Part shown: positions 6,463 to 39,761 of the stretch, one piece after another | How the letters are laid out: every line of letters starts with the position of its first letter | How positions within the stretch are numbered: position 1 is the stretch's first letter | NCBI GenBank assembly: GCA_018060845.1 | Contig: JAGOVG010000003.1 | Span: 21,759 to 85,758, forward strand | DNA length: 64,000 bases | Source of the DNA: Candidatus Woesebacteria bacterium | GTDB lineage: Bacteria; Patescibacteriota; Microgenomatia; UBA1400; UBA12108 | Direction: 5' to 3' | The notes under the pieces: model-generated | Databases searched by the model: none | Told to the model about the DNA's origin: nothing | The model's input: the letters and a program-made list of their open reading frames with translations, nothing else | Position numbers and translations under genes: made by a program

Positions 6463-6577
6463 AGCTCTATCATAGCGTGCTCTGAGAGATGGATGCCAAA
6501 TATTAATTGCTTTAGATTATAAATTTTTGTCCATACGTTAAGAAACTGTGGCGAATACTATTATCCAGCGAGTTCAA

Positions 6578-6599
6578 CCTGGTTTGGTCTCAAACCAGG
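6578..6599. other. Perfect hairpin in the gap between the two comEC ORFs
   Basis: CCTGGTTTG gtct CAAACCAGG: 9-bp stem with 4-nt loop. No adjacent U-tract. Confidence 0.4.
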
Positions 6600-6649
6600 A
6601 GTTCTACGAGCTATCGCATGAGCAAACAGTTTTAGTCGGACATCAAAAT

Positions 6650-8367: not shown

Positions 8368-10182
8368 GTGAAGAAAACAAGTAAAAAGTCATACCTATTC
8401 CCTCTCAGTATATTAGCTCTGGCTGTTCTGGTCGCAACCTCTTATCAACTACTAGCTCCCAAACCTACTCAACTCGGCATCAACCAGATCACAGTCTCCG
8501 GCACTCAGAGATATGTCGCACCAAACGGCAGCGATACTAATAACGGCTCAGAGGCGACACCTTACAAAACTCTAGGTAAAGCTATCAACTCTGCTGGACC
8601 TGGTGATGTTGTCTGGATTAAGCCAGGAACATATAAAGAGAATATTAAAATTAATAATAAAAAAGGTACCCCAGATGCACCAATCCGCATTGTGGGAACC
8701 AGCACTAGTCCAGCCGACTACCCTATCTGGGATGGTGGTAACACCGGCTATGCCAAAAATACAGACAACCCCGCACTCACCCTCACTAATAGTAGTTGGA
8801 TCACCATCGAGCGCCTCAAATTCCAGAGCTCAGGCCTCGCCTCTGTTTTTGTCGATGCTTCACACTATATAACATTCCGTAGGAACGTTATGGATTATCT
8901 CAAGTATGGAGTCCTCTCTCGCAACAAAAGTTCTCACCTACTAATCGAGTATAACGAGTTCTACCAGAGTTATCCTAGCAACTCCACCTGGACCCAGCTC
9001 AAAGACAGTAAATGGGAAGGCGGTGCCTACACTTCGTTTAGCGGCGCTGGCATGAATATTATCCGCAACAACTACTTTCACGACCAGTTTAACTCAGTAT
9101 TTATGTATAGAGACGTCCGAGTCGGCAATTATTACGACGCCAACGTCTGGATCTACAGAAATCGCTTTGAACGTATCGTCGATGACCCCTACGAGCCAGA
9201 GACCTATGCCGTCAACAACCATTTCTTCCACAACACACTAATCGATACACATCGCTTAATCTCTCTAGCTCCAGAAGATGGCAAAGCTCCTCTCCAAGGC
9301 CCTATCTATGTCTATGGCAATATGATGATCCTCAAAAAAGATCCAACAAAAGAGCCAACTAGAGAAAATTCTGCCTACAAGCTAGAGCTCTCTCCCAACA
9401 GCTGGGCAAACGGGATTTATCTTTTTAATAACAGTATCGATGTAAGCTATGCCGGCACCAATGGCTCAGGAATAGACTTTTTGAGTAGTACTGTTTCAAA
9501 CGTCACCCATATTAACCATGCTTACAAAAGTCTCAAGAACGTCTTTGGTTCTAGTAAATTAACACTCAAAAACAGTACCTTTAGCCACGACATGGCGACC
9601 AACTTAGGATATACCGAGAACCCAGGGTTTGCCCAGGATCCTGCTTTTACCAATTCAAGCGGCGAAAACCTAACACTATCAGCCAACTCTCCAGCAAAGG
9701 GCAAAGGGCGAGAGCTCACTGTTAGCAGCGGCTTTAGCAACAACAACGTGATCGCAGCTGGCGCCGATCTAGGCGCATTTAACGCGAGCGGGACCGATTT
9801 TAAATCATTCCCCTCACCTGCCTATATGACACCTCCAGGTGGCGAAGATAGTAGCTTCCCCGCTAACACTGCTTGGCCCGCAGACATTATCCCAGGATTT
9901 ACCCCTCCCTCAGGCCCTAGTTGGCTAACTGGAGTAGTAACTACACCCAATCCAACTGCCACCCCCACTCCTACGCCCACGCAGACCCCCTCTACCGTTC
10001 CATCAGCCACCCCGGCACCTTCTCCAAGCGTAATCCCCACTCCATCTGTAAGCGCAAAGCCTGGCGACCTAAATAACGACGGTGCAGTCGATATCAAAGA
10101 CTTTAATCGACTTATCTCAAACTTTGGTAATCCCTATACCATCCTCGACTTTAACTTGATCATCAGTAACTTTGGTAAATAA
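8368..10182 (+). CDS. Secreted right-handed beta-helix (pectate-lyase-fold) protein with C-terminal dockerin-like module
   Basis: GTG start. Signal peptide. Repeated PbH1-like turns (IEYNEFYQS, IIRNNYFHD, IYRNRFERI, NNHFFHNTLID, VYGNMMI, LFNNSIDVS). PT linker. Then GDLNNDGAVDIKDFNRLISNFGNPYTILDFNLIISNFGK. Confidence 0.55.
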   Translation: MKKTSKKSYLFPLSILALAVLVATSYQLLAPKPTQLGINQITVSGTQRYVAPNGSDTNNGSEATPYKTLGKAINSAGPGDVVWIKPGTYKENIKINNKKGTPDAPIRIVGTSTSPADYPIWDGGNTGYAKNTDNPALTLTNSSWITIERLKFQSSGLASVFVDASHYITFRRNVMDYLKYGVLSRNKSSHLLIEYNEFYQSYPSNSTWTQLKDSKWEGGAYTSFSGAGMNIIRNNYFHDQFNSVFMYRDVRVGNYYDANVWIYRNRFERIVDDPYEPETYAVNNHFFHNTLIDTHRLISLAPEDGKAPLQGPIYVYGNMMILKKDPTKEPTRENSAYKLELSPNSWANGIYLFNNSIDVSYAGTNGSGIDFLSSTVSNVTHINHAYKSLKNVFGSSKLTLKNSTFSHDMATNLGYTENPGFAQDPAFTNSSGENLTLSANSPAKGKGRELTVSSGFSNNNVIAAGADLGAFNASGTDFKSFPSPAYMTPPGGEDSSFPANTAWPADIIPGFTPPSGPSWLTGVVTTPNPTATPTPTPTQTPSTVPSATPAPSPSVIPTPSVSAKPGDLNNDGAVDIKDFNRLISNFGNPYTILDFNLIISNFGK

Positions 10183-17571: not shown

Positions 17572-18954
17572 ATGTCAAAGTATTCTATGTTTAATCACAT
17601 CTTGTTTCGCACTACAGCGTGTGTCTTTTTGACGATTGCACTCAGTTTCATATCTTCTTCTCCTGTACTAGCTCAGAGCACTCCAGGCATCACTACTGGC
17701 AGCATTCGCAAACTAGACGTCACTCCACCAAGCGGCGGCTACTTTGAGCTGCCATTTTTTATGACATCATTTAACAATACTCGTGTAATTAATGTTCCAA
17801 CAGCCTGGACTTTTACCTGCAATGTCACTGCCAACCCTCTTACTACTAGCATTAACACCAGTAACTCTAGTTGTCTCTTAACCAACAAGAGTCTCATCCA
17901 CCAAAAAGATTCTAGTGTCACTGCTCCCTACGCCCGCAACTATATAGCGACCGTTACCAACCACTACATTAATGTTGGTGGCTCACAGAGGCGCTATAGC
18001 GTTAACCACGGCGAAAATAAGAACGAAAAGGTTAATGGTGTAGCATATCAAAACTCAGTTAACCCTGATATCACTACTTCTACGTGTATGTCACAGTTAG
18101 TAAATGGTGTCTACCAAGACTGTAATGCTTCCTACCACTCGTTTATAACTCTAAGCTACGGTGACAGCTATCCACAGACAGATCTTGGACCCATCATATG
18201 GCCCGATCGCGGCTACTACTCCCCTCACCCTAATAACTCAGGAGTTCGCTGGAGCCACTCTTTTGTCCGCATTCCTCATGGTTTTGTTAATGACGGGTAC
18301 CTGTACGTTTACTACCACGAACAATCCTCCTACAACGATAGAATTGGTTTAAAAGTGGCTCGCGCTCCAATCAACAATCTGACCCCAGCAGCATTCAAAA
18401 AATACTCACAGGGTAGCTGGGTCCCAGCACTACCCTCTGGTTTTGACAACAACAGAATTACAGATTTTTATAATCAGCCAACCAGCGACTCTAGCCCTAT
18501 TATCCCAAGAGTTACTGGCGTCGCGCATATTTCTATGGCTGTCACCAAGACTCAATCAGGCTCATTTTTGGGGATCGAAGAAGCAATAGTCAATAATCAG
18601 TGGGCGCTGCGCCTCTACTCAACGACTGATCTAGTCAACTTTACTCTTCTCGGGACCGTTGCACAGGAGGCTAGTTATGCCGCAGGCAAACTTCATTACC
18701 CCGTTTTTCTAAACGCGGCTGGCGACAATAGTAGTCTAGTTGATACTAATAATTTTTACGTAGTCGGTAGTAGCCACACTGGCGAGATCTCGGTACTCCC
18801 GTTAAGCGTCTCTAACATGAAGCCCAGCAAGCCAGGTGACCTTAACCTTGATGGCACAGTCAATCTCATCGACTTTAATCTCCTAATCACCAATTTTGGT
18901 AACCCTTATACTATCCTCGACTTTAACTCGATCATTAGTAACTTTGGCAAATAA
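17572..18954 (+). CDS. Secreted protein of unknown function with C-terminal dockerin-like module
   Basis: Signal peptide. C-terminus KPGDLNLDGTVNLIDFNLLITNFGNPYTILDFNSIISNFGK, nearly identical to the tail of 8368-10182. Confidence 0.55.
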   Translation: MSKYSMFNHILFRTTACVFLTIALSFISSSPVLAQSTPGITTGSIRKLDVTPPSGGYFELPFFMTSFNNTRVINVPTAWTFTCNVTANPLTTSINTSNSSCLLTNKSLIHQKDSSVTAPYARNYIATVTNHYINVGGSQRRYSVNHGENKNEKVNGVAYQNSVNPDITTSTCMSQLVNGVYQDCNASYHSFITLSYGDSYPQTDLGPIIWPDRGYYSPHPNNSGVRWSHSFVRIPHGFVNDGYLYVYYHEQSSYNDRIGLKVARAPINNLTPAAFKKYSQGSWVPALPSGFDNNRITDFYNQPTSDSSPIIPRVTGVAHISMAVTKTQSGSFLGIEEAIVNNQWALRLYSTTDLVNFTLLGTVAQEASYAAGKLHYPVFLNAAGDNSSLVDTNNFYVVGSSHTGEISVLPLSVSNMKPSKPGDLNLDGTVNLIDFNLLITNFGNPYTILDFNSIISNFGK

Positions 18955-18963
18955 TACCAACCA

Positions 18964-19614
18964 TTGACAAGGATAGTCACCCTCTGTCATATTAGAGATA
19001 TGCCAAGTATTCTACTCAAACGCGACTACCTAGCCGGGTCTTACTACCACATCAAGCATCAGGCCAAAAAAGATACACTATTGTTTCAGACTGAGGCCGA
19101 CTACAAAACTTTTATCCTGCTCCTCTCTTACTACCTCCGCTTCCCCGATGCGACCCCTCTCTCTTGGGTCAAAAGACTCAACCCCAAGACAGTTGTCGAC
19201 AAACGAAACAAGAGCGAGCTGGGGGCTAGCCCTGTCACCCTCCACTCTTTTCTCCTCCTCCCCGACCACTTCCACCTGGTTCTCAAAGAAAACCAAGGGG
19301 GCAAAAAACCCGGGATCAGCAACCTCATGCGCAGGCTCTCAGTTGGCTACGCCATGTACTACAACAAAACTTACGGAGTAAAAGGCACCATCTATCAAGG
19401 CAAGTACAAAAATATTCAGATCAACCAGGACGACCTATCTCCACTCGTGCAGTCGCTCCACGCTCACGACAACGTCAACTCGACATATATGAATAGCCCG
19501 CTGCACAGTAGCGCTAGCGACTATGGTAGTAGCGCCCGACCATGGATCACACCACTACCTCTAGGTATGGAAGATAATGCCAAACTAAATCCTCGCTTAC
19601 TGCTAGACAAATAA
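18964..19614 (+). CDS. IS200/IS605-family Y1 (HuH) transposase-like protein, REP-associated tyrosine transposase-like
   Basis: YYHIKHQAKKDTLLF resembles the N-terminal YHxxxxxKxR motif. PDHFHLVL is an HuH motif. YQGKY provides the Tyr motif. There is no tnpB partner. The start is possibly the Met at 19000. Confidence 0.5.
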   Translation: MTRIVTLCHIRDMPSILLKRDYLAGSYYHIKHQAKKDTLLFQTEADYKTFILLLSYYLRFPDATPLSWVKRLNPKTVVDKRNKSELGASPVTLHSFLLLPDHFHLVLKENQGGKKPGISNLMRRLSVGYAMYYNKTYGVKGTIYQGKYKNIQINQDDLSPLVQSLHAHDNVNSTYMNSPLHSSASDYGSSARPWITPLPLGMEDNAKLNPRLLLDK

Positions 19615-19633
19615 TCCTTGCTATACTAGGTTC

Positions 19634-20362
19634 ATGCCCAAGTTATACGCAGTGTTTCTGCTTTCAACTTTCTACTTGCTACTTTCTACTCCACTCGCCT
19701 CTCGCGCACTCGCTGAGACCATGAATAGCAACAACTACACAATCCGGACCGGCAACTTTAATATTACTAGTGGTCTCAAGAGTAGTGGTAGCTATAGTTT
19801 GACCGACACCGTTGGTCAAACAGTCGCCAACTATTTTTCTGGCACTGGCTACCACGTCAAAGCAGGTTTTCAATACCTCTACACTCTCTACAACTTTAGC
19901 TTTAGCATCTCTGATCTCGCAGTTAATCTAACTCTCACCCCCAACTTCTTTAGTACCGATACTCATAACTTGGTAGTGACCGCACCAGGTCAGGGCTATA
20001 GCGTAAGCGTTTACGAGACCGAAAAACTAACCCTGAGTGGTGGTCTAGATACCATCCCAGATACTACCTGCGACTCTGGCTCCTGCACAGAGACTAGTGC
20101 CGAGCCCTGGACTAACGCCAACAATAATGGTTTTGGCTACAACTTAACAGGCAACGACATAAGTTCCGACTTTATAAACAGTTCATACTTTCGCCCCTTC
20201 CCCGATTTTTCCCTAGGCGAAAATCCCGCAACCATCATGTCTACAGTCGAAGCCGGGAAAAACAGAACAGCTACCGTCACCTACCAGCTCAGTCCTAGTG
20301 GCTCTCAAGCCTCAGGCACTTACTTCACCAACATTATTTATATAGCCACTCCAACCTACTAA
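19634..20362 (+). CDS. Secreted Thr/Ser-rich surface protein (cassette C, gene 1)
   Basis: Signal peptide MPKLYAVFLLSTFYLLLSTPLASRALA. Contains TCDSGSCTETSAEPWTNANNNGFGY. Ends YIATPTY. Confidence 0.55.
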   Translation: MPKLYAVFLLSTFYLLLSTPLASRALAETMNSNNYTIRTGNFNITSGLKSSGSYSLTDTVGQTVANYFSGTGYHVKAGFQYLYTLYNFSFSISDLAVNLTLTPNFFSTDTHNLVVTAPGQGYSVSVYETEKLTLSGGLDTIPDTTCDSGSCTETSAEPWTNANNNGFGYNLTGNDISSDFINSSYFRPFPDFSLGENPATIMSTVEAGKNRTATVTYQLSPSGSQASGTYFTNIIYIATPTY

Positions 20363-20364
20363 CT

Positions 20365-21279
20365 ATGAAAAACATATTCATCTTCCTTTTACCTTTGACC
20401 TTTCTCCTTTTACCTCCACAAGCTAGTGCCGCCGCTGGCATGAGTGTAACTCCACCAGTCACCGAAATTCTAATATCGCCTAATAAGTCAGTTAGTACCA
20501 CCATTCAACTAACCAACGACGGTGAGGACACTAGTATCATCCTCTCGCTTCATCGCCTCATCCCCCAGGGAGACCAGGGACACTCCACCATCGACCCTAA
20601 ACCCCTCGACCCGACTTCTATCCCCGTAGTAATAAAGTTAGTAGGCAAGGAATTGGGTATTCCATTCAAATTATCTGCGGGTCAAACCCAGGCTATCACC
20701 ATCGAGCTCGAAGCGGCCAATCTAGATGAGCCGACAGATGTTTATTTTGCGATTCTCGCCCGCGGCGTAAATGAGGGGGCTAGCCCCACAGAGAGCCAGG
20801 CCACGCCCGGCATCACTGCGCTCTTCATGGCCACCATCACTCCCTCTGCATCCCTGCCCACAAACATTGCCTTAACCCCGCCTGAGTTACCGATTATTCA
20901 AGATACGAGCATACCTCTGTCATTTGATGTCAAAGCCGAAAACAAGACTGGCATAATGTTGCAGGTCCAAGGCAAGATCAAATTACTGTCACCCAATAAG
21001 GCATTAATTTCCGAATCAAGTATTGATCCCAAACTAATCCTAGGCAATACCTCACGCCTACTTTCTGATTTCGAATTTCTACCTTCTAATTTCGCTTTTG
21101 GTCCTCACACACTGACGATCGAGCTCTCAACAGTTGGCGGCCGCACCTTAACCGAGCACTCGTATGTGATCTGGATGCTCCCTCTTAGGTACCTACTGGT
21201 TGCTACTGTAGCCCTAGTCATTATTTCTATCCCATTACTCCGCAAGTTTCACTTGACAAGGGTATCCATAAGAGCCTAA
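20365..21279 (+). CDS. Secreted surface protein with C-terminal TM anchor (cassette C, gene 2)
   Basis: Starts 3 nt after the upstream stop. Signal peptide. C-terminal TM LLVATVALVIISIPLL followed by RKFHLTR. Confidence 0.5.
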   Translation: MKNIFIFLLPLTFLLLPPQASAAAGMSVTPPVTEILISPNKSVSTTIQLTNDGEDTSIILSLHRLIPQGDQGHSTIDPKPLDPTSIPVVIKLVGKELGIPFKLSAGQTQAITIELEAANLDEPTDVYFAILARGVNEGASPTESQATPGITALFMATITPSASLPTNIALTPPELPIIQDTSIPLSFDVKAENKTGIMLQVQGKIKLLSPNKALISESSIDPKLILGNTSRLLSDFEFLPSNFAFGPHTLTIELSTVGGRTLTEHSYVIWMLPLRYLLVATVALVIISIPLLRKFHLTRVSIRA

Positions 21280-21293
21280 AGTGATACATATAT

Positions 21294-22711
21294 ATGTCCA
21301 AATTGCTTGTAGGCTATTCTGCCCTTGTCCTCACTACTCTGGTAACACTTATTAACCCGAGCTCGCTCAATAGCGCCAACCTAACGACCGTCAGAGATAC
21401 TCTCCAGACATCAAGACTCTCAGTTAATGCGCGGGTGGACGCTACAGGTACAACTGTTGGCAGTAGTAACGTCAAACTCAAAACTGTCGCTAGTGCCCCA
21501 GCCAACACCATTAGTACCGGCAACCTGAGAGCCCAAGATAGCTTGGTAATAGGGACTGGAACCTACACCGTAGTCGATATCGTTGACGCAGACGAATTTA
21601 CCGTCACCCCAGTCCTGGCTAGCGGCGATGCCGACGACAACGATCCTATTTATTTAAAAATACGTCCTCGCCACGCCATCCAGTTTACGACAGCTAGCGC
21701 TGTCGCTAATGGCTATTTCCAGGTCCTTCTCCCTGCCGATCCAACTACCCCAAACGACGGCAACCCAGATGACCAGGGTTATGACTTTAATACTACTGTC
21801 AATGTGACAGCTCCCGCAGACGTCGGCTCTACTTTTGATTTTGTAACAGGTGTCGCAACGGCAGCTGGTGCCACAGGTTGTACTAGCCCAGCCAACTATC
21901 ACTGTTTTGAGTTTCACTACAGTGGCGCTGGCGGAGTCGGCCAAGCTTTTACCCTTTATATCGGTAACACCAATGGTAGTAACACTCCAATAGCCCCTGC
22001 GACCGGCACTGCGCACACCGAAGGTACCGCCGACACCTACCCTGTCTTGGTTCGCCAATTTGCCGCAGATACCAACCCCAATTCAGCCACACCAATCGAT
22101 GCAACAAGCGCTCGGGTCGCCCACATCGAAGCAGTACGAGTAACAGCCACAGTCGAACCAACTATCAGTTTTAGTATCGCAGGCATCGCATCAGGCGCTA
22201 CCCGCTGCGGTATTAGTACTGATGTTACAACCACAGCCACCAGCGTCCCCTTTGGCAGCATGACTCTAAACAGTTTCAAAACACTAGCCCAAGATTTGAC
22301 TGTTAGCACTAACGCTAGCGGAGGCTATGTCGTAACTAGCAGTGAAAACGACCAACTAGGTCTCGGTGGTGGCACCACTCCCTTTATCCCAGATACCACT
22401 TGTGATGGCGGCACATGTAGTGAGAGTACGGCAGTAGAGTGGGCAACAGCCACCAATAATGGTTTTGGTTATAGCCTGGAGAATGTAGATGCAGTAACCA
22501 TCGCGTTTGAGTACGACACTAGTGGCGACACATTCCGTAGCAAGCAGTTTGCCGATATTACAGGCAGCGAAACACCTCAGACTATCTTTAGTAGTAGTAC
22601 AGTCGCCAACGCCGAGAATGCTTATGTCTGTTACCGCTTAAGTGTAGGTGCTACTCAAGCAGCCGGCGACTACGAGAACCAGATTACTTACACTGCCACC
22701 GGAACCTTCTA

Positions 22712-22712
<1 letters not shown>
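21294..22712 (+). CDS. Secreted Thr/Ser-rich surface protein (cassette D, gene 1)
   Basis: Contains TCDGGTCSESTAVEWATATNNGFGY, a paralog of the 19634 protein. Ends YTATGTF. Confidence 0.55.
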
Positions 22713-23677
<965 letters not shown>

Positions 23678-23695
23678 CTGAGATATACTGGTTTC

Positions 23696-24955
23696 ATGCC
23701 CAAGTTTTTTATTGTTCTAATTCTTACTACTTTCAACTTTCTAATCTCTACTATTTCAGTCCACGCTGCAACAGATCCTATATCGGCCACAGTTAGTGCA
23801 ACCGCCAGGATCCCTAGCGCTAGTCCAACTACAGACGATACCGCAGCTCCCCCTGCCGTTATTTTGATTTCCCCTCACGATGGCGCGACCACCAACCAGT
23901 CACGCCCCGAACTAGTATGGAAGACGACCTTTGATAGTAATAGTAACAACGTAAGTTATATCGTCTACCTCAATGGTGTAGCTACCTATCTAGGTGTTAG
24001 TAATACCGGCAACTCACAGCAAAATAACTACATCTCCCATATCGGAGATGGCAACATTTATCTGACACCGACCATTGATCTACCTGCCGGTACCTACGAT
24101 TGGTATGTGAGAGCCATAGATGGCAGCGACAACTCTAGTTTCTCTACCACCTGGCGCTTTACCATTGATCAGACACCGCCGCAACTCACAGTGGTCAATA
24201 TTGATGATGTCTATCTCTCCCCATCCATTACAGAGGGTACTAGCTTTGATTTACCAGGACCACAAGAGGTCAAGATCATCTTTGCGACCGAGAGCTACGC
24301 TACAGTCTCAGTAACCATAACACTCAGTGATGGGACTTTAAGGTCTGTCAGCTTGCCTACCAGTAGTTCTGGTCTCGCCACACTCCTAACCTCGCTCCCG
24401 TTAGGAAGACATGAGATAGTCGCAACTAGTTTTGACTCTGCAGGCCTAACCACTACCCTACCCACCTTCTACCTCAATCTCACTACCACCACCATACCTG
24501 GTATTACAGGGTCGCCCATCCTGCCTATACTCAAAAATATCGTCAATCTACCCGCAAAACTGATAGTATTACCCGCTACCATCTCCCAGATCAAAGATGC
24601 TCAAGTGTTCGCATATGGTTATTCTATATTGCTAGCATTAGCAATAGCCATACTGCTAATCATAATCTGGAGCAGGAGATATAACATCACGATCCTTGAT
24701 ACTTCAACCAACAAGCCCTATCGATCACTTATCGTATACCATAGTAGACCTACTCACTCCGCGAGGCTAGGTGACTTAGCTAGTCGCATCTTTGTAACCT
24801 CTCGCTCACCTATCCTCTACGAGCTAGGGAGCAGTGGCAGGGCCTACATTAGTCATCTGTCGCGCTACAGTAGCTTAACTATCCGCACACCTAGTGGTAC
24901 TACCCACATCCTCTCGATCTCATATAATCTGAACAAGTATGTAATCTGTCTCTAG
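23696..24955 (+). CDS. Secreted Ig/FN3-like surface protein with C-terminal TM anchor
   Basis: Signal peptide MPKFFIVLILTTFNFLISTISVHA, paralogous to the cassette signal peptides. Beta-rich repeats. TM ILLALAIAILLIIIW near the C-terminus. Confidence 0.45.
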   Translation: MPKFFIVLILTTFNFLISTISVHAATDPISATVSATARIPSASPTTDDTAAPPAVILISPHDGATTNQSRPELVWKTTFDSNSNNVSYIVYLNGVATYLGVSNTGNSQQNNYISHIGDGNIYLTPTIDLPAGTYDWYVRAIDGSDNSSFSTTWRFTIDQTPPQLTVVNIDDVYLSPSITEGTSFDLPGPQEVKIIFATESYATVSVTITLSDGTLRSVSLPTSSSGLATLLTSLPLGRHEIVATSFDSAGLTTTLPTFYLNLTTTTIPGITGSPILPILKNIVNLPAKLIVLPATISQIKDAQVFAYGYSILLALAIAILLIIIWSRRYNITILDTSTNKPYRSLIVYHSRPTHSARLGDLASRIFVTSRSPILYELGSSGRAYISHLSRYSSLTIRTPSGTTHILSISYNLNKYVICL

Positions 24956-34200: not shown

Positions 34201-34453
34201 CTCAACCGCAGGTGTCAGCACCCTCCTCTCACCCGACACTGAGCTAACGATCGATAGTCCCTATGTCACTGCCAACTCCCTAGTCTATTTGACACCTACC
34301 ACAAATACTGACAACAAAGTTCTTTTTGTCAAAGCTAAGGTTAGTTGTCCCGAAGAATCTGAACTATGCACACCATCATTCACAGTCGGGATAGATGCAC
34401 CAGCGTCGACTGACATCGGCTTTAACTGGTGGATAATCGAGCTCAAACAATGA
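25244..34453 (+). CDS. Giant (3069 aa) single-pass membrane surface protein. Two N-terminal phage-integrase SAM-like domains, TM, Gly/Thr/Asn-rich beta-repeat ectodomain with LamG-like domain and S74-type intramolecular chaperone domain.
   Basis: Uninterrupted 9.2-kb ORF. Two N-terminal repeats resemble the XerD N-terminal domain (LTAFRTYLASLGLSSISRKLYSADI and YLKDNHLTDSSIRSYKSDITQYLTYL). TM at about aa 272-298. LamG/ConA-like segment at about 30.88-31.41 kb (WHHVAITSNGSTIAVYIDGQ...LDELMI). SDERLKTNI...VNYNWKD at 32.96-33.25 kb matches the PF13884 tail-fibre chaperone motif. Confidence 0.75.
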   Translation: MKNTVQLPSTHTALLTAFRTYLASLGLSSISRKLYSADIARLLASSLFSDLNVATLTNPKNYASYLSQPELTSSSTLLRRTLASLRQFGTFLNQSFDLPSPITNLSLASNTLSNTISNSSSKYIKACMEYLKDNHLTDSSIRSYKSDITQYLTYLESHHPSTQIGSLLTDKNLQNYTDLLTHLDTQSPATIERKIKTIRRFLNWYSSTKLQVVVSDNTKIPASSSHISPLSSSVQVNGVNSAQAELYSDQPQTQLPDHKYNNVKTSNYRKLRLPTLRMILSGVILLVLVSTLSIFSYRQFGRDASLTAAFPSTPVTPNRQLSFQGRLENASGTPITAATNFVFKLHDASSGGSELYSSGTCSITPDTDGVFSTQIGGTCGAGIASSVFTENADVWLEVTVGAETLTPRQQIATVAYALNSETIQGFPISATVSAIRNTVVPMNQWGEIIVGEQSPRLTGVSGTFQISAPSLSLVTATGTNGNITLAPDGTGQVNVNGNTTTTNFFNVSNAQLTTGSLITGTAANNNTGFNLLDLLSGASPTSKFSVSDSGDTTIAGTLSLPNSNNMTGVANGVQFNEGIFVGGGTTYYFDVGGELNAAGGAFSNGLSIINDSALSAFGQVNLGDGGETIHLNGTSITLTGFDCTGNTNGGALTTNGSGVLQCSDDDGGGGGSGGLWQDTTLGAISPNNSTWDVLVGGTATSSAKIGLININSGTPTINLANQASNLAVIDNTSNALRILEGANNYLALTTTNASENLSFGNTTTNPTFSFLGTGLTTLSGGLTVNGITTIGNNSATVAINSSDWDITTVGNMSGIGTISSDGDWTNSQATPSIFLTDSTASSDDYSVNVDANVFNITNATDSRIELDFAGNGSINFGDNTATKTIDIGGVTSSAIDTINIGTNATAADIISIGNNHASTTLALTGGTAWSITTAGNLTTNNTTVNGNTILGNAITDTIDFQGRVLQDADLIPITTTGTNDLGSSALAWDNLYTNAAYFAGGTSFYVDASGNARFNDIIAADTANPGITVGDGSTGFLKVGSLTVGDNNASVVTFDTNSDATPEFQLYNTGSATASGDITMGGQLQVGRFENTPTAIGAGTMIFNTTTNSFQCYNGTAWTSCGGTLFSNSNASVADGSYITVTHNLASNDLLSNAWINAQGVWKSLDASYKPAIAWEGKDTQKGIYHNALNSYIPSSETGTGTNTLHEGMIFDTFEDTTKTDSANTTVSTNQQIGDDGSSNFVTLDQRIQGGRVGLVGGQTLSTGETDNDGQAYLGSNTVNDMYYYDRAKDSVPEVLVELGIDPNWYNGVTLSVATGSASYSQSGTLADKNPNLTTTYNGSLIKATGTDSTPRTIFITIKSPTTFDWTNYEGDSATAVTITPGTAQALGSTGVSATFTATNYNVGDVFKIASWYIEAESATRGAKQQFPERSYVVASGTAGAGFIDVIDADTQKLWIKFTEGTGYYLRSTANRVPHTVDMLNGKLYFGQKDSNNGILERINFDTDSLHLWTPSAKYTYDQGISQRNTASNILTINTTETTVANDVNDVSAAVIPNQPSQQMTLTGWRVHPGNGTATLTSGVDFQYPFTDTPQIQVSIVGRTTSTTTPKSLKDCSTNVDSATISAYNNNPANFYARFSNTTFSASYNYCFVWSATGTVAPKQIVAVATGTTGADGGTTIINETDGKKADILIGSQNASVLWQNKVALAQDGTLYVVLNNQSTATTLNVYAGASGIPEVISQEPTWAAYRNGFYYLDLQTQGWSATGPVIKGVGTNSDEVKSLSVTSGTSSISPGANTIYVGTSTGVTVLNEANIEPDYNSDEPSNGSVKYYTKDYVSEEMIGDVRGMWGMYDTDTDIDTAETTDDVSIKNLNLTANNANSTGFTSTSGVRGEGITFDGTDDYFSRADDASLSFSNNTMSASYWVKRNGNPSSAEYIMLKGITTWEYASAITTAGKIISWLFTSAGATVATVTSNLSVTDNEWHHVAITSNGSTIAVYIDGQLDNNSTSFTSAMTNTASSFYVGDRSDIANSEFQGSLDELMITGTALSSSQVRNIYQVGYRALQSHTSSGLGTGGADTNQQLGYISTGTSSVGVVQPDYNNQYMYVGTNSTTLGALSKIQLNSDTNIKTYNSSANVPTGGVLTLDEDITSLAVGETLYAVGSAASGVKTMGLDNNATATSGNFVSKTYALPKNIGSAVLWVSPIMDSNDGSNTITVQASNDGGSNYATCTLVNTNTNYDAPEREYACTFTAADNDLKVRFQMARGNTKTNTYVVQYGISWLGETGFRVEQADNNNVRLYNFSGEAQNLKLNITGASTSALANPWTDGGSYIYATGYETLRIYDGAGTNYLGLSHDGTYATLGYNGTDFINLTSTGDLLPETNDTQALGSDSFRWEDVFLGPGSVHVGTSTTDEGVISYDTSGNILNIGTDSTSNGDIAFFTDDLYLDKSSGFIGLGDITPDYLLDVAGTAGFDSTLTLTGSAANVALGSNYLSGDGGDEGVYVDSSGNVGIGNASPDRPLQVTRSTTGIPMRLQNNFTDSSEYWVVGPSDSDNFAIFNDATTGMYIAYGATSWTANSDERLKTNIEALTSVEGLASLLELTPVNYNWKDVNTNQSKQTGFLAQEVQRLFPGLVSLGETTTITLADGSTQTIEAPLGVNYTGFIPYIIKGIQEQQAQISQMFQNLITPQVNTAMISPLAPGQSIEITAPVVISPTTPNLDTPTLIVDGEIEATTISARVAQLETIRAETITARDIVADTITANSIVGLDAKIASLSAGISESDFDSISERIRSRLASLTGGEANAQDVPAPPSIPETVIEYSELSTASATLATADIDFVTVNQYLAVIGSATITSLDITSDLYTNRIGSKDNLLAIQPLGGIVNIADSTFVVDSSGQVMVNGDLTVSGRILAESGNLGSLELGSPLDASASSALGNLLSIYNEQGQAVATIDASGSANLAGLTTQLVTIASGGTSATQSGLISSQTSSNSTAGVSTLLSPDTELTIDSPYVTANSLVYLTPTTNTDNKVLFVKAKVSCPEESELCTPSFTVGIDAPASTDIGFNWWIIELKQ

Positions 34454-35151
34454 GACAATCAATGTGGTTTAATAGATCTATGCTCAACTCTAGACGACGT
34501 GGTTTTACATTAATCGAATTACTAGTAGTTTTGGCTATCCTAGCTATCTTAATGATAATTGCTTTGAGTATGGTTCAGACCAATAGAGACAAAGCAGTAG
34601 ATAGCAAAATTAAAGCCGATCTTCAAAGGTTAAAGATTGTCTTCGAAGATTACCATGCTGACAACGGCTGCTACCCGCCACCCAGTTTTTTCGACGATCC
34701 TAGTGATTGTGGCGCTAGCCACCTCGCTCCATACTTAAGCACGATTCCCTGCAATCAAAAAGGCGGTAATCCCTACACTCTCGAACGTGACCCCACAGGG
34801 TGTGAGTGGTTCAAGATTTATGCTGATCTATCACTCTCAACCGATCCTCAAGCCCTAGAACTCTGTTCACCCTCTGGATCCAGTCTTGGCAACTATGCAA
34901 CCAGCTCAGACAACGTAGTCCCGAGTGTCCTGTGTGATGCTCAACCTAGCTCATCTGCGCCGAGCTCTGCTCCGGGTGTGTCACCATTACCACAAGGTCA
35001 CAACTACTATTACTGCAGTGCACAGGGCAACTGCACCAGTTTTAACGAAGAATCTCACGTCTGTACACCCTATTTTGTAGATAATCCTAACTGCAATGGA
35101 ACCATCAGTCCTTGCACTACTCAGTTTGTTGGATCTTGCACCTCGCTATAA
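34450..35151 (+). CDS. Type IV pilin-like protein (prepilin N-terminal cleavage/methylation domain) with Cys-rich C-terminal domain
   Basis: GFTLIELLVVLAILAILMIIAL carries G-1/F+1 and Glu+5. The leader is about 18 aa. The ATG overlaps the giant gene's TGA as ATGA. The C-terminal domain has 14 Cys. Alternative start ATG 34480. Confidence 0.75.
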   Translation: MRQSMWFNRSMLNSRRRGFTLIELLVVLAILAILMIIALSMVQTNRDKAVDSKIKADLQRLKIVFEDYHADNGCYPPPSFFDDPSDCGASHLAPYLSTIPCNQKGGNPYTLERDPTGCEWFKIYADLSLSTDPQALELCSPSGSSLGNYATSSDNVVPSVLCDAQPSSSAPSSAPGVSPLPQGHNYYYCSAQGNCTSFNEESHVCTPYFVDNPNCNGTISPCTTQFVGSCTSL

Positions 35152-35169
35152 ATTACAAACTATCGTAAC

Positions 35170-37053
35170 ATGATATATATGACTACAAAATCTATATTAC
35201 TGGTCACACTAATCACACTGTGCTCGCTCTTCTTTTGGACAATCACCCCTAACTATTTTGCGACCCCAAAAGAGGTTGTCTACTCACTAGTTATATTAGT
35301 AATTGGCATTATCACAATACACTCCCTACTAGTCAAAAAAACTCTCCGTCTCCCAAGCATCTATACTATTGCCCCACTCATTTTGTTCATAGTATCAGTT
35401 ACTTTATCTCTCATTTTCAACCCAGAGGGGAGGCCAGAAGCACTAGGCAGCAAAGCTAGCATTCTCCTATCTCTACCAATTATCGCTCTATACTTTAATT
35501 ACCACGCAACTAGCGCTCTCTCCAAGATCCTAATCAACAGCCTCGTCTGGGTCGGCTCACTCCTCTCTCTCCACAGCCTACTTTCACTAATTACACTGTC
35601 CAAACTAATCTGGTTACCACAGTACATGCAATCACAGGCTTTCACGCCGACTGGCTCATACCTCACTACCCTCTTCCTCATCGCAGTTAGTCTATCGATC
35701 TCAATCTACCAGCTCAAAAAGAATACTCAAGGCGTCTATTACAAGGTTGCACTCCTCATCATCCACATTGTCGCAATCGTTGCAATCGTGGCACAGATGC
35801 TACCTGGCAACCCACTCTCACCACAACTCTTACCTTACGGTTCGAGCTGGAGCATCGCGCTAGATGCCCTCAAATCGATCAGATCACTATTTTTTGGGAT
35901 TGGTATTTCCAACTATAGTCTCCTCTATACCAGTGTCAGACCTCTCGCAATTAATGCAAGCGAACTATTTAATCTACTACCTCAGAGTGCGACCAGCGAA
36001 TTTCTCACCATTCTGCCGACCGCAGGCCTACTCACCTCAATATCACTGATTTATTTGATGCTAAAAACGGTCTATCAATCTCGTGCAACATTGCTTTTTG
36101 CACCTACAATACTCACAGTTATTACTTTCTTCCTTATCCCCTCCTCCCTGATCCAGTATCTCTTACTCTTTACTATTTATGGACTCGTCTCAAGAGAGCC
36201 GAGCACAGATCACGTTTCGCTCAAACACAAAAGTAATATTATAATTTCTATTCTAGTATTATTTTTAACAGGAGCTTATCTCTACCCAACAGTTTCCAAC
36301 TACGTAAGTGAATATTTCATTAATCGCGCGCGCGTTGCAACCATAGCAGGTGAGAGTCAAAAAGCCTACGAATCTCATCTTAGAGCACTCTCTATCTCGC
36401 CACGTATCAGCAACTACTACATTAGTTTTGCCGATATCAACTTTAGGCTAGCTCTCGCACTCTCGCAAAAACCAAATCTAAGCGAAGAAGAGCGCCAAAA
36501 CGTATCGAGGTTAATCCAACAGAGTATCGAATCATGCAAAAATGCCATCGCGCTAAGACCCAATGATAGTCGATCTTGGGTAGCGCTAGCCAAGATTTAT
36601 CAAAATTTAATCACTGTCGCTCAGGGTGCAGATAATTTTGCCCTAGAGGCATACACCAAAGCAGTCTCACTAGACCGTGCTAACCCTGAGCTTAGGGTTG
36701 AGCTGGGCAATCTCTTCTCACAACTAGCTTCGCTTCCCAAGAATGCTTCTAGCTCGAGCGCTTTGAGGGAGCGAGCTCTCAACGAGATCTCAACTTCCCT
36801 CCAGCTCAAGAACGACTTTGCTGCAGCATATTACAGCCTTGCTCGGATTTTTGTCCAAACCAACGAGACCGATAAGGCTCAGGCAGCATATGACCTAGCA
36901 CTCAAATACCTCGATCCAAATAGCCCAGAATATGCTCGAGTTCTTTCCGAAAAGAACCAGCCAGAGATCACAAAGACACCCTCACCAACCCCACTCCCAT
37001 CACCAATTGGTGGTGCAGCACTAAATCTGCCTACAGCAGAATCAAATAACTAA
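35170..37053 (+). CDS. Polytopic membrane protein with C-terminal TPR repeats (O-antigen ligase/Wzy_C-like; candidate pilin glycosyltransferase)
   Basis: At least 10 predicted TM helices in the N-terminal 400 aa. Then TPR-like repeats (AYESHLRALSISP..., ALRPNDSRSWVALAKIYQNL, AAAYYSLARIFVQTNETDKAQAAYDLALKY). It lies directly downstream of the pilin gene. Confidence 0.4.
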   Translation: MIYMTTKSILLVTLITLCSLFFWTITPNYFATPKEVVYSLVILVIGIITIHSLLVKKTLRLPSIYTIAPLILFIVSVTLSLIFNPEGRPEALGSKASILLSLPIIALYFNYHATSALSKILINSLVWVGSLLSLHSLLSLITLSKLIWLPQYMQSQAFTPTGSYLTTLFLIAVSLSISIYQLKKNTQGVYYKVALLIIHIVAIVAIVAQMLPGNPLSPQLLPYGSSWSIALDALKSIRSLFFGIGISNYSLLYTSVRPLAINASELFNLLPQSATSEFLTILPTAGLLTSISLIYLMLKTVYQSRATLLFAPTILTVITFFLIPSSLIQYLLLFTIYGLVSREPSTDHVSLKHKSNIIISILVLFLTGAYLYPTVSNYVSEYFINRARVATIAGESQKAYESHLRALSISPRISNYYISFADINFRLALALSQKPNLSEEERQNVSRLIQQSIESCKNAIALRPNDSRSWVALAKIYQNLITVAQGADNFALEAYTKAVSLDRANPELRVELGNLFSQLASLPKNASSSSALRERALNEISTSLQLKNDFAAAYYSLARIFVQTNETDKAQAAYDLALKYLDPNSPEYARVLSEKNQPEITKTPSPTPLPSPIGGAALNLPTAESNN

Positions 37054-37055
37054 AT

Positions 37056-37814
37056 ATGAAAGCTCGAAATACAAAATCCTGGAAAACACTCATAATCCCC
37101 ACTCTCGTAGTCGTGATTACCTTGCTCTATCTCTTCATCAAACCTAAGCCGATCCAGATCGCCGAAATTACTAATGTCCCAGGCAGCGTATCACTAACTC
37201 TGAGCGCCACATCTCCACAGCTCAAGCTCAACCAGCCCAGTACAGTCACACTCTCATATAGCTCTCCAACCGAAAGATTCACCGCCATCCAGACCGATAT
37301 TATCTTTGATCCGACCTACTTTAATGTCTCATCATTTACCCCCTCTCCCACCATGGAGGCCATCCTCCAGACTGCTACTGTCAAAAATGGCAATACTATT
37401 TCTTTTGCTTACGGGGTCGCACCTGGTAGTCAGGGTTTAATCGGTAGCGGTAGCATCATGAGCTTTACTGTCACACCAAAAAAAACTGGCTCTAGCCCGC
37501 TAACTCTGCAGAATACCTTAGTCGCGACAATAGGTCGTCCCACCAACGCTCTCCAGAGCGTGGCTAATCCCACATTTACCGTGATCAACCCATCCCCCTC
37601 AATATCCCCCACACCGAGCCCCACTCCCTTACCTTCAATTACTCCGACACCTAGTCCAGTGCCCTCTCCTTCACCATCTCCCACCTATAAGGCAGGTGAT
37701 CTCAATAAAGATGGTCAGGTCAACTTTGTCGACTTTAATGTACTCATTACCGACTTTGGGACCAAATATCACATTGTCGACTTTAACAACATCATTACCA
37801 ACTATGGCAAGTAG
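37056..37814 (+). CDS. Cohesin-like domain protein with C-terminal dockerin-like module (adaptor-scaffoldin-like)
   Basis: N-terminal TM or signal. Cohesin-like segment VTLSYSSPTERFTAIQTDIIFDPTYFNVSS...ISFAYGVAPGSQGLIGSGSIMSFTVTPKKTGSSPLTL. PT linker. Then KAGDLNKDGQVNFVDFNVLITDFGTKYHIVDFNNIITNYGK. Confidence 0.5.
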   Translation: MKARNTKSWKTLIIPTLVVVITLLYLFIKPKPIQIAEITNVPGSVSLTLSATSPQLKLNQPSTVTLSYSSPTERFTAIQTDIIFDPTYFNVSSFTPSPTMEAILQTATVKNGNTISFAYGVAPGSQGLIGSGSIMSFTVTPKKTGSSPLTLQNTLVATIGRPTNALQSVANPTFTVINPSPSISPTPSPTPLPSITPTPSPVPSPSPSPTYKAGDLNKDGQVNFVDFNVLITDFGTKYHIVDFNNIITNYGK

Positions 37815-37852: not shown

Positions 37853-39247
37853 ATGAAGAAAAAGATCACTCGTACCAAAGCTAAAGTTTCCAAGAGGATC
37901 AAGTCCAAATCAACCTCCCTTTCTCCACTCCCACTCATCTTAGTTTTAGCCTTAATCATTATCTCAGGCTACTATGTCTACCGCTCACTCCTATCCAGTT
38001 CTAGTACCCCGATCCAGATCGCCGAGATCAAAAATGCCACCGGGTCGGTTAATCTAAACTTAAATAGCACTAAGACTTCCCTCGCCCCTAACCAGGATGC
38101 AACAGTTACCTTAACCTACGACTCCCCAACCGACAAATTAACAGTCATTAGTGGTGAGATCAGCTACGACCCCGCAGTCTTGACTGTTAGCAACTTTGTC
38201 AAAGGCGATGGTTTCCCCACCGAGTTTGCAGCAGCCACAGCCGCAAATGGCAAAATAACCTTTACCTACGGCGTCGCGGTCGCCGCCGGATCAGGTTTAA
38301 CTGGTCAAGGCAATATCTTGACATTCAAAGTCAGATCCAAGGCAGTCGGCTCCTCCACCCTCGCAATCACTGATGCTACCCAAGTACTCGTAACTGGCAA
38401 CAGCAATAATGCACTTCGTGAGATTACCAATACTACAGTCGCAGTTGCAGACCCAGCAGTAAGCCCCTCCACTGCCGCGAGCGCTGCAGTCTCTCCATCA
38501 CCCAGTACCACTGTAACAGTTAGTCCGAGCCCAGCGGTATCTCCATCTGCAGCTGCATCCATTATTCCCTCAACTCCTGCCTCTGCCTCACCTATTGCTA
38601 GCGTGCCAGTAGTCCAAAAACCGGCCGCTCCCACTAACCTCGTATACAACTGCTACAGTGACGGCAAAAGGATCACCTTGCGCTGGAATGCAGTTGCCAA
38701 TGTTGATAGCTACGAAGTAGTCTTTGACCAAAAAGATGGCGACAACGACCAGACAAAGTCAGCCACTCGCGCCGAGATCGACCTAGATATCAAAAATAAC
38801 ACGAATTACAAATGGAGTGTTGTTAGCGTTAAGGATGGTGTTAAGAGCGATGCCAGCAGTGTAAATGATATTAAGTGTAGTGGTGACGTCGCACAAGCTG
38901 CTACCCCTACTCCTACTCCCACGCCAACAACTACTCCCACACCCACCCCAGCTCCAACCAAAAAACCTATTACAGAGCAGATTGCAGGTATCTTCAAACC
39001 CAAGTCTCCCTCACCTACTCCTACCCCCAAGCCAACCTTAGCTCCGACAGACTTTACTACGCCCAACCAGAATAGTAATGTCATTGCCACACCCACTCCA
39101 ACACCTGGCAGCCTCGGCGACATCTTTACTTCCCCCTCAGCTACTCCAGTCGTCGCAGCCAACACGAACAATACCAGCTTCTTCTCCAAAATCCTCTTAG
39201 GATGGCAAGCACTCTTCATTAGATTCATCGAAACGCTGACAAATTAA
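37853..39247 (+). CDS. Cohesin-like domain, FN3-like domain and Pro/Thr-rich linker surface protein
   Basis: N-terminal TM. Cohesin-like segment VTLTYDSPTDKLTVISGEISYDPAVLTVSNFVKGDGF...KITFTYGVAVAAGSGLTGQGNILTFKVRSKAVGSSTLAI. FN3-like NLVYNCYSDGKRITLRWNAVANVDSYEVVF. Long PTPTPT linker. Confidence 0.5.
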   Translation: MKKKITRTKAKVSKRIKSKSTSLSPLPLILVLALIIISGYYVYRSLLSSSSTPIQIAEIKNATGSVNLNLNSTKTSLAPNQDATVTLTYDSPTDKLTVISGEISYDPAVLTVSNFVKGDGFPTEFAAATAANGKITFTYGVAVAAGSGLTGQGNILTFKVRSKAVGSSTLAITDATQVLVTGNSNNALREITNTTVAVADPAVSPSTAASAAVSPSPSTTVTVSPSPAVSPSAAASIIPSTPASASPIASVPVVQKPAAPTNLVYNCYSDGKRITLRWNAVANVDSYEVVFDQKDGDNDQTKSATRAEIDLDIKNNTNYKWSVVSVKDGVKSDASSVNDIKCSGDVAQAATPTPTPTPTTTPTPTPAPTKKPITEQIAGIFKPKSPSPTPTPKPTLAPTDFTTPNQNSNVIATPTPTPGSLGDIFTSPSATPVVAANTNNTSFFSKILLGWQALFIRFIETLTN

Positions 39248-39421: not shown

Positions 39422-39497
39422 GGGCCCTTAGCTCAGTTGGTAGAGCGCTTCTATGGCATAGAAGAGGTAAGCGGTTCGATCCCGCTAGGGTCCACCA
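39422..39497 (+). tRNA. tRNA-Ala (anticodon GGC), CCA encoded
   Basis: Cloverleaf: acceptor GGGCCCT/AGGGTCC with the G3:U70 Ala identity pair. D-arm GCTC AGTTGGTA GAGC. Anticodon arm CTTCT ATGGCAT AGAAG. T-arm AGCGG TTCGATC CCGCT. Discriminator A plus CCA. 76 nt. Confidence 0.85.
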
Positions 39498-39761
39498 ATG
39501 TGGACTGTTTATATTCTGCAAAGCCAGATAAACTATTCCTACTACGTCGGCTCAACTTCTGATGTCAACCGCCGAATTAAAGAACATAATGCAGGCCACA
39601 CACCCTCCACAAAAAATCTCATACCACTCACCATTCGTTTTTCTCAAGAATACCCAACGCTAAAATATGCTAGAAAAGTCGAGAGTTGGTTAAAGTCCAC
39701 TCATAGCAAGGTCGTCATCGAACAAATAATACTAGATGGCAAGATAAACAAAAAGTTCTAA
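39498..39761 (+). CDS. GIY-YIG nuclease family protein (YhbQ/UPF0213-like)
   Basis: MWTVYILQSQINYSYYVGSTSDVNRRIKEHN is a classic GIY-YIG motif with the conserved Arg and Glu. ATG immediately follows the tRNA CCA. AGGG of the tRNA acceptor 3' strand sits 8 nt upstream as a possible SD. Confidence 0.7.
   Translation: MWTVYILQSQINYSYYVGSTSDVNRRIKEHNAGHTPSTKNLIPLTIRFSQEYPTLKYARKVESWLKSTHSKVVIEQIILDGKINKKF

Follow-up and report, generated by a model that had tools for sequence, protein, structure and literature searches.

Why does a gene for a large membrane protein stand directly behind a prepilin gene in a bacterium of the Candidate Phyla Radiation (CPR), and does its product act on the pilin, on the cell surface more broadly, or as no enzyme at all? 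CPR bacteria (Patescibacteria) rely on pili and huge surface proteins for attachment to host cells. The question is raised by two genes in a 64,000-nucleotide (nt) stretch of DNA from a Candidatus Woesebacteria bacterium (GenBank assembly GCA_018060845.1, contig JAGOVG010000003.1, positions 21,759 to 85,758 of the forward strand), the whole of which is called the window below. An original prediction had placed two co-directional open reading frames (ORFs) at 34450-37053, the first for a type IV pilin and the second for a polytopic membrane protein with a tetratricopeptide repeat (TPR) array, and had proposed that they form a pilin modification pair. Both ORFs are present and the gene pair is real, the prepilin ORF (34429, 34450 or 34480 to 35151) being followed on the same (+) strand by the membrane-TPR gene (35170-37053). 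Our analysis suggests, short of proof, that in this uncultured, ultra-small bacterium of the CPR/Microgenomates type surface proteins are coated with sugar by an enzyme family so far uncharacterised. We tentatively propose, as a reading that is plausible but falls short of probable, that the membrane-TPR protein is an extracytoplasmic glycan-transferring enzyme acting on co-encoded surface proteins, with the pilin as one probable substrate.

Predicted architecture and fold of the membrane-TPR protein

The outline of the membrane-TPR protein agrees with what had been predicted. Hydropathy and AlphaFold helices together predict 11 transmembrane (TM) helices, where at least 10 had been claimed, with 7 before and 4 after a large loop, and the C-terminal TPR array extends over residues ~396-595, matching several Pfam TPR families with E values down to 5e-10. 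AlphaFold models were obtained for the full-length protein (predicted local distance difference test [pLDDT] 85, predicted template modelling score [pTM] 0.81) and for the membrane domain as a TM-only model (pLDDT 81.5, pTM 0.85). The N-terminus appears to lie inside the cell, and the large loop as well as the TPR domain on its outer side: 4 TM helices follow the external loop, the analogy with WaaL and helix counting place the TPR domain on the same side, and the positive-inside signal is weakly supportive. Family members share 14 invariant residues (K34, P150, F158, P160, G162, W227, D232, K235, G243, G245, N248, G286, P324, and F334), 13 of which lie in loops predicted to face outward; W227, D232, K235, G243, G245, N248, and G286 are all held by the large loop. 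In the disordered C-terminal tail, P606, P608, and P610 are almost invariant.

Scans of the window protein against Pfam, taken as far as E ≤ 10, and against NCBIfam yielded TPR matches only, and an NCBIfam “PilW” match was discarded, being caused by the TPRs alone and lying far below its cut-off. Likewise, a Foldseek search with the full-length model returned only TPR proteins; since these swamped the search, it was rerun with the TM-only model. The top match was then WaaL (7tpg_B; E = 2.5e-3, probability 1.00), whereas all other matches had E ≥ 0.3 and a probability of at most 0.38 (0.10 for the second-ranked, at E = 0.3), and those to other membrane proteins did not exceed 0.16. Besides WaaL, the matches above 0.16 were short alignments to the histone chaperone Hif1 only, and SEDS proteins and glycosyltransferases of the GT-C type came low in the list (AftA, E = 0.79, probability 0.12). 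We rejected a GT-C identity (TfpW/PMT-like) on the low Foldseek probability of these structures and the absence of any PMT_2/ArnT-type Pfam match to the protein.

Relatives of the protein point in the same direction as the WaaL structure. Among 41 representatives spread over the family, 15 matched the Wzy_C model (PF04932) at E ≤ 0.01, the best at 4.2e-9. In per-protein scans, every match scored 16.6-25.2 bits, below the gathering score of 31.7 bits, and the matches always place residues ~170-298 on positions 17-149 of the hidden Markov model (HMM). The large loop carries a family motif, W..(D/E)..K..P..GxGxxN[YF], that is collinear with WaaL, the family HMM aligning W269...P280..G283-V-G285-V-G287-Q-F...H311-A-H313-N314 of the Cupriavidus metallidurans protein (CmWaaL) to W-s-i-a-l-d-s-L-K-n-s-P-l-l-G-v-G-p-g-n-Y...s-s-s-n. 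Because WaaL is the sole credible fold match, the relatives match Wzy_C weakly and the loop motif is collinear, we conclude that the membrane-TPR protein does belong, though only as a very distant relative, to the WaaL/Wzy_C fold superfamily.

A large family restricted to CPR bacteria

An exhaustive profile search recovered at least 4,325 representative clusters (50% identity) at E ≤ 1e-3, 639 of them at E ≤ 1e-30. Of the 150 family members listed, almost every one is 600-700 amino acids (aa) long, and this near-uniform length indicates that the fusion of the TM and TPR domains defines the family. A word-indexed search returned 44 full-length homologues, none of them annotated as Wzy_C. The family is restricted to CPR bacteria and is unannotated, the two members with a source name being called “hypothetical” or “TPR repeat protein”; we found no description of it in CPR in the published literature.

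Relatives of the locus come from metagenome-assembled genomes (MAGs) of Microgenomates, Woesebacteria, and the “Patescibacteria group.” The MAG records of several loci (L005, L007, L008, L012-L015, L017, and L019) are titled “uncultured Pseudomonadales” or “uncultured Gammaproteobacteria.” These titles fit neither the gene content nor the homologues, whose records name Microgenomates/Woesebacteria, and they probably mislabel the taxonomy of third-party annotation assemblies.

Conserved neighbours of the membrane-TPR gene

Gene context was compared across 23 loci containing a membrane-TPR gene, namely the window, 20 distinct loci among L001-L021, L103, and L105. The Cys-rich pilin is encoded 0-2 genes upstream in 11 of these (the window, L001, L002, L004, L005, L006, L007, L010, L011, L103, and L105), which are the closer relatives, with a TM-domain identity of at least ~35%. 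Homologues of the giant protein whose gene precedes the prepilin gene in the window recur more widely than the pilin, even in the most distant loci. The upstream-encoded protein ends in a ~70-aa C-terminal module (...SLVYLTPTxNTxNKVLFVK...FTVGID...FNWWIIEL, hereafter the FNWW module) in 12 of the 23 loci (the window, L001, L002, L003, L004, L005, L017, L018, L020, L021, L103, and L105). In the distant loci L017, L018, L020, and L021, the FNWW protein is the immediate neighbour of the membrane-TPR gene, and in L017 and L020 it is reduced to ~250-280 aa, comprising a Phage_int_SAM-like domain in the cytoplasm, next to it a segment that looks hydrophobic by eye, and the module. The FNWW module may be the actual partner with which the TPR protein has been conserved.

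The giant protein of the window has an N-terminal phage-integrase SAM-like domain (residues 125-210; PF13495, E = 2.9e-5), which is presumably cytoplasmic, and a single TM helix at about residue 290, after which ~2,700 aa are predicted to be external. The external part includes Laminin_G_3 at 1895-2050 and a Peptidase_S74 intramolecular-chaperone domain at 2575-2631, which is not C-terminal. In L003, a bAvd-type gene (9482-9841; 23S_rRNA_IVP/bAvd, an accessory of diversity-generating retroelements [DGRs]) lies between the gene for a 2158-aa Laminin_G_3 protein and the membrane-TPR gene, and the giant protein of that locus may be a DGR target.

On the + strand of the window, the 3069-aa giant ORF, the prepilin gene, the membrane-TPR gene, and 2 ORFs with cohesin domains form a series, in which the stop of the giant ORF overlaps ATG 34450 as ATGA, 18 nt separate the prepilin gene from the membrane-TPR gene, and 2 nt separate the latter from the first cohesin ORF. 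The 2 cohesin genes (PF00963, E = 8e-6 and 1e-7), which stand in the same order in the related locus L005, are probably in the same operon, since they are preceded by gaps of no more than 2 and 38 nt. Scanning the window for patterns of promoters and terminators gave no better results than shuffled sequence did, so the operon is drawn from gene spacing alone. On that basis, the prepilin and membrane-TPR genes appear to belong to a cell-surface operon encoding a giant fibre-like protein, a Cys-rich prepilin, an 11-TM/TPR protein, and cohesin-type proteins.

The cysteine-rich prepilin

The N-terminus of the prepilin is that of a canonical type IV prepilin, as had been claimed. It reads RRG/FTLIELLVVLAIL or RRG/FTLIELLVVLAILAIL, with the processing site RRG/FTLIELL, and matches both PF07963 (E = 1.8e-10, 40.4 bits; cut-off 21.2) and TIGR02532 (E = 8.6e-9, 34.9 bits; cut-off 16.3). 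A profile of the pilin family matches Geobacter PilA-N, Thermus PilA, GspG, and PilE with E values down to 1e-16, over residues 4-69 only. The leader had been put at about 18 aa because ATG 34450 was chosen as the start; it is most likely of 8 aa (MLNSRRRG, from ATG 34480). In 9 of the 10 loci examined there is a proximal ATG giving a leader of 3-8 aa, which in 5 of them (L001, L002, L006, L010, and L105) is the sole ATG; the peptide between ATG 34450 and ATG 34480 is not conserved among relatives, and a database homologue with 98% identity (P0045) is called at 223 aa. With type IVb defined by a long leader (about 15-30 aa) and a residue other than Phe at +1, we also rejected the type IVb-like assignment, as +1 is Phe and the 18-aa leader rests on the non-conserved upstream ATG. 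Phe at +1 and Glu at +5 identify a signal of the type IVa/pseudopilin type instead, and the class III signal of the prepilin is a standard one whose leader is short.

The pilin is indeed rich in Cys, which makes up 5.6% of the mature protein versus 0.46% in 24 other window ORFs. The count is 12 rather than the 14 first given, and the CxxC-like spacing described near the end is absent, the C-terminal module reading C-x5-C-x9-C-x9-C-x6-C-x7-C. All 12 Cys (numbered here from ATG 34480) are retained in 11 of 23 pilin homologues, whereas C129 and C152 are missing jointly in 7. In three homologues C152 is replaced, and C129 is followed 2-3 residues later by another Cys (CxxC or CxxxC); in the homologue P0067 the entire C-terminal module is absent, all 6 of its Cys being gone together. 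This pattern of loss and replacement is compatible with the proposed pairing of the Cys, and fits 6 disulfides among the 12 conserved residues. Neither the globular part of the pilin nor its C-terminal module has a Pfam or PDB sequence match.

The SSSAPSSAPG stretch noted earlier is present in the Ser/Ala/Pro linker, a region that might be considered a candidate for O-glycosylation. As for a C-terminal Ser/Thr acceptor, there is no conserved C-terminal Ser; the window pilin ends in ...GSCTSL, and family members differ in their C-terminal residues (L, F, R, N, and others).

Scanned against metagenomes, the pilin alignment mainly picked up generic pilins that resembled it in the N-terminal helix alone; the globular domain was matched in just L023, L024, and L026, so the scan gave no useful reverse-association statistic. 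A pilin relative with 41% identity (P0065) lies within a canonical type IV pilus (T4P) cluster (L104, 1339-5956; T2SSE, T2SSF, Peptidase_A24, and several pilins) that has genes of the PilB, PilC, and PilD types. One of its pilin genes is directly followed by the gene for a 667-aa protein with TMEM260_N and PMT_2 domains (GT-C), and the cluster also encodes a YfhO protein of 727 aa. The L104 cluster offers independent, though circumstantial, support for the pairing of CPR pilins with polytopic glycosyltransferases, here with a second type of membrane enzyme.

Proposed function and alternatives

We propose that the membrane-TPR protein would take a lipid-linked glycan at an outer-face site while its external TPR domain would hold exported proteins encoded alongside; the glycan would then be passed to those proteins, in the manner of an O-oligosaccharyltransferase-like enzyme. 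Acceptor sites on the pilin could lie in the Ser/Ala/Pro linker or at Ser residues that are conserved. For this clade the pilin probably counts among the substrates, but an enzyme reserved for it is unlikely, since the giant FNWW protein is the more widely kept partner.

A number of observations weigh against this proposal. A search of the window protein with the Wzy_C model, named beforehand as the test that could refute the O-antigen-ligase assignment, gave no match even at E ≤ 10. Of the O-antigen-ligase-family architecture originally claimed, what stands is the WaaL-like fold, seconded by the relatives' weak Wzy_C matches; with the curated sequence test failed, Wzy_C membership holds at the fold level only. 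The Foldseek TM-score to WaaL is only 0.44, the family profile has no match among PDB sequences, and hhalign comparisons of the family with Escherichia coli WaaL (EcWaaL) and with a 21-sequence WaaL profile were not significant (probability <1%) and were used solely for the position of the local alignment. The PglL_A motif (PF15864) was found neither in the window protein nor in the 60+ relatives scanned, and membership in the PglL, TfpO, or GT-C groups is not established. The genomic evidence raises similar objections: the membrane-TPR gene stands without this pilin in the more distant loci (12 of 23); genes for leucyl-tRNA synthetase (LeuRS) upstream and Obg downstream recur in distant loci, so that part of the adjacency may be plain synteny; the Ser/Ala/Pro linker is variable, and is short or absent in a 10-Cys pilin clade that keeps the membrane-TPR neighbour; and no glycan-assembly gene (initiating phosphoglycosyltransferase, flippase, or glycosyltransferase) was found among the ~53 window ORFs scanned.

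The catalytic residues belong to the same side of the balance. R215, R288, and H338 of EcWaaL (R224, R298, and H349 of Neisseria meningitidis PglL, NmPglL) are conserved functional residues (PMC3643930), and hhalign and HMM alignments find no conserved equivalents of this Arg/Arg/His set in the membrane-TPR family. hhalign sets T275-S276-E277 of the window protein on EcWaaL H338-N339-E340; the catalytic His (EcWaaL H338/CmWaaL H313) maps to a variable S/T/R/A column, occupied by T275 in the window; the position four before W227, matching R288/R265, is Y/L/F; and the outer end of TM7 has no conserved Arg. The mapping is provisional, because the alignments are individually weak; the two independent methods agree, however. 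With the canonical Arg/Arg/His replaced and invariant polar residues present (K34, R88, D232, K235, K257, N248, and E277), the chemistry or the donor may differ from that of WaaL and PglL.

A dedicated pilin O-oligosaccharyltransferase, TfpO/PilO- or PglL-like, would modify the Ser-rich linker or the C-terminus of the pilin before assembly, and the placement of the membrane-TPR gene 18 nt downstream of the pilin gene, on the same strand and in an order retained in 10 related loci, is what such an enzyme would lead one to expect, as are the WaaL-like fold of the membrane domain and the resemblance of the SSSAPSSAPG linker to low-complexity acceptor regions of PglL substrates (PMC3643930). Against an exclusive pair, the membrane-TPR family, with its thousands of clusters (≥4,325), is far wider than a pilin family of ~23 close members. 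The loci that lack the pilin, the 10-Cys clade that keeps the pairing though its linker is absent, and the missing C-terminal Ser, PglL_A motif, and catalytic His/Arg also count against a pilin-dedicated enzyme. The pilin-specific account is weakened by these observations, and we hold it to be quite unlikely. Dispensing with a protein substrate altogether, a Wzy/WaaL-like glycopolymer ligase or polymerase would build envelope polysaccharide or attach it to lipid or cell wall. The closest fold is indeed that of WaaL, a lipid A-core ligase, the weak Pfam matches are to the general Wzy_C model, and the family is near-ubiquitous in the lineage, with LeuRS/Obg flanks recurring at a distance; adjacency to surface-protein genes would then be conserved gene order only. 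To our knowledge, CPR bacteria of this type have no lipopolysaccharide (LPS), and this host type speaks against a glycopolymer role, as do the external TPR domain, invariably fused to the membrane domain as reported for the protein-directed WsfB, PglL, and TfpW, the tight operon-like spacing to genes for exported proteins, and the polysaccharide synthesis genes not found nearby. We consider such a ligase or polymerase rather unlikely.

The replaced residues might also mean that activity has been lost, leaving a non-catalytic scaffold whose external TPRs anchor, chaperone, or organise the giant FNWW fibre and, here, the pilin as well. Apart from the Arg/Arg/His set, essential in WaaL and PglL and not conserved here, this would fit the most distantly kept neighbour, whose ~70-aa C-terminal module is a possible TPR ligand, and the minimal FNWW versions of 250-280 aa, which contain little beyond a membrane anchor and the module. 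Against a scaffold, 13 of the 14 invariant residues are polar, Gly, or Pro positions (K34, D232, K235, N248, and others) that cluster in external loops, and the GxGxxN[YF] skeleton persists even at 22-30% identity, as is more usual where an active site has been retained than in a relic; we regard a scaffold as unlikely. Returning to the proposed glycan-transferring enzyme, its widest form would see in the CPR-wide family the general enzyme for O-glycosylation of proteins or for surface ligation that has so far been missing for Patescibacteria, with a mechanism unlike that of WaaL/PglL, giant FNWW fibres as primary clients, and pilins recruited in one clade. This extension is, for now, rather doubtful.

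Features of the locus and its surroundings

Table 1. Sequence features of the prepilin/membrane-TPR locus (window coordinates).
Feature	Position	Strand	Basis or remarks
Giant surface protein, 3069 aa	25244-34453	+	Laminin_G_3, Peptidase_S74, Phage_int_SAM-like N-terminus
C-terminal module ending in FNWWI(I/V)(E/D)L	34240-34450	+	Matches nothing in Pfam or PDB
Prepilin gene, 223 aa from ATG 34480	34480-35151	+	PF07963, TIGR02532; proximal start common to relatives
Alternative prepilin starts	ATG 34450 (ATGA overlap with upstream stop), GTG 34429	+	ORF reading
Basic leader MLNSRRRG, 8 aa, ending at the prepilin-peptidase site G/F	34480-34503	+	Translation
Alpha1 helix (FTLIELLVVLAILAILMIIAL...) with Glu5	34504-34659	+	Family profile versus solved pilins
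Globular pilin domain, 6 conserved Cys (C64, C77, C91, C108, C129, C152)	34660-34935	+	Homologue alignment
Ser/Ala/Pro-rich low-complexity linker, DAQPSSSAPSSAPGVSPLPQGHN	34936-35004	+	Translation
C-terminal 48-aa module, 6 Cys (YYYCSAxGNCTSF...C..NPNC...C...GSC)	35005-35148	+	Conserved as a unit
Membrane domain, 11 predicted TM helices, WaaL-like fold	35170-36345	+	AlphaFold, Foldseek, relatives' weak PF04932 matches
Large loop, predicted extracytoplasmic, residues 212-286	35803-36027	+	Invariant columns; collinear with WaaL loop
TPR domain, 10 helices/about 5 hairpins, predicted extracytoplasmic	36355-36954	+	Pfam TPR_11, TPR_19, TPR_17, and others; AlphaFold; Foldseek
Pro/Ser/Thr-rich disordered tail (TKTPSPTPLPSPIGG...) and stop codon	36955-37053	+	pLDDT <50 at residues 600-627
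Cohesin-domain surface protein 1	37056-37814	+	Cohesin PF00963; 2 nt after membrane-TPR gene; long Pro/Thr/Ser linkers
Cohesin-domain surface protein 2	37853-39247	+	Cohesin PF00963; 38-nt gap from preceding gene; long Pro/Thr/Ser linkers
tRNA-Ala (GGC)	39422-39497		End of surface-protein operon

The tRNA-Ala gene and a small ORF directly after it (39498-39761), GIY-YIG-like by eye, mark the end of the operon. A third protein with a cohesin domain is encoded at 4250-5236 (+), and one of the 3 cohesin-domain proteins of the window has a weak dockerin-like match. These cohesin-domain proteins hint at surface assembly of the cohesin-dockerin type in a CPR bacterium. The cohesin-domain proteins contain very long Pro/Thr/Ser linkers (e.g., PSPSISPTPSPTPLPSITPTPSPVPSPSPSPT), which are plausible further targets of O-glycosylation. 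Directly upstream of the giant gene lies a run of 7 ORFs (17572-24955, +), 6 of which have Sec-type signal peptides together with weak matches to immunoglobulin-like domains (FixG_C/fn3_5/WxLIP_PGBD, Big_13) or no Pfam match; the run represents a probable surface-protein operon.

No T4P machinery (the prepilin peptidase PilD, or PilB and PilC as assembly ATPase and platform) was found among the ~53 window ORFs scanned. The window also contains DNA-uptake genes on the - strand (5584-8294), encoding ComEA (SLBB and HHH_3; 7704-8294) and a split ComEC, with a Competence-domain ORF at 6650-7738 and a metallo-beta-lactamase ORF at 5584-6462; the lone pilin could belong to a competence pilus. In several loci, ORFs near the membrane-TPR gene share the N-terminal motif ...YH(I/V)YN(R/K)G...(I/V)F.DD.DY..F...L..YL and are IS200/Y1-transposase-like by eye (window 18964-19614, L012 1401-2102, L018 3089-4276, and L020 12267-13406). 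GC skew is negative in all 2-kb bins of the window (1-64000), the cumulative skew dropping monotonically to -6.2; the + strand is C-rich throughout despite genes on both strands, and there is no skew switch.

Significance and comparison with known systems

The WaaL fold and external TPR domain open, for the first time, a way into the structure and function of a very large family that has no annotation, and the neighbouring exported proteins are concrete candidate substrates. That the canonical catalytic residues are replaced matters for the study of mechanism in the WaaL/PglL superfamily and also for glyco-engineering. Should the protein prove non-catalytic, its pairing with FNWW-terminated giants would still define a new surface-assembly module. 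Protein glycosylation in Patescibacteria has been described as unexplored, pilin glycosylation having been predicted only, with no enzyme assigned (PMC11623550).

Four known systems resemble the membrane-TPR protein in different respects. With WaaL of C. metallidurans (7TPG) and E. coli it shares the fold match, a large outward loop, and the collinear loop motif W-x9-E-x-P-x2-G-x-G-x-G-[NQ]-[FY]. WaaL has 12 TM helices, whereas the window protein has 11 by helix count and adds an external C-terminal TPR domain; furthermore, equivalents of R215/R288/H338 are absent, there is no significant profile match, and the host has no LPS.

The pilin-modifying enzymes, Neisseria PglL, Acinetobacter baylyi PglL/ComP, and TfpO/PilO, share membership of the Wzy_C superfamily, an outer C-terminal domain, and a co-oriented pilin neighbour; pglL adjoins pilin genes in 21 of 31 cases (PMC3643930). 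Unlike them, the window protein has no PF15864 match, its residues at the catalytic positions differ, and its pilin does not carry the conserved C-terminal Ser seen with TfpO. The host, moreover, is a presumed monoderm CPR bacterium, and the family is mostly found with no pilin neighbour.

TfpW, the pilin arabinosyltransferase of Pseudomonas aeruginosa Pa5196, has a near-identical outline, with ~646 aa, a cytoplasmic N-terminus, 11 TM helices, and a large periplasmic TPR domain, and is encoded directly after pilA (bioRxiv 10.1101/2020.04.19.049825). It belongs, however, to the GT-C enzymes, carries a DDX motif, and has been modelled after ArnT, whereas the window protein matches WaaL instead.

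WsfB, the surface-layer O-oligosaccharyltransferase of Paenibacillus alvei, joins Wzy_C to a C-terminal TPR motif, as PglL does, and acts in a monoderm on an abundant exported surface protein encoded in the same cluster (PMC2943079). WsfB is described as a Wzy_C-containing protein, and its gene is part of a cluster for glycan biosynthesis, whereas the window protein fails the Pfam model and glycan genes were not found nearby. By this analogy, the membrane-TPR protein would work most like WsfB and PglL.

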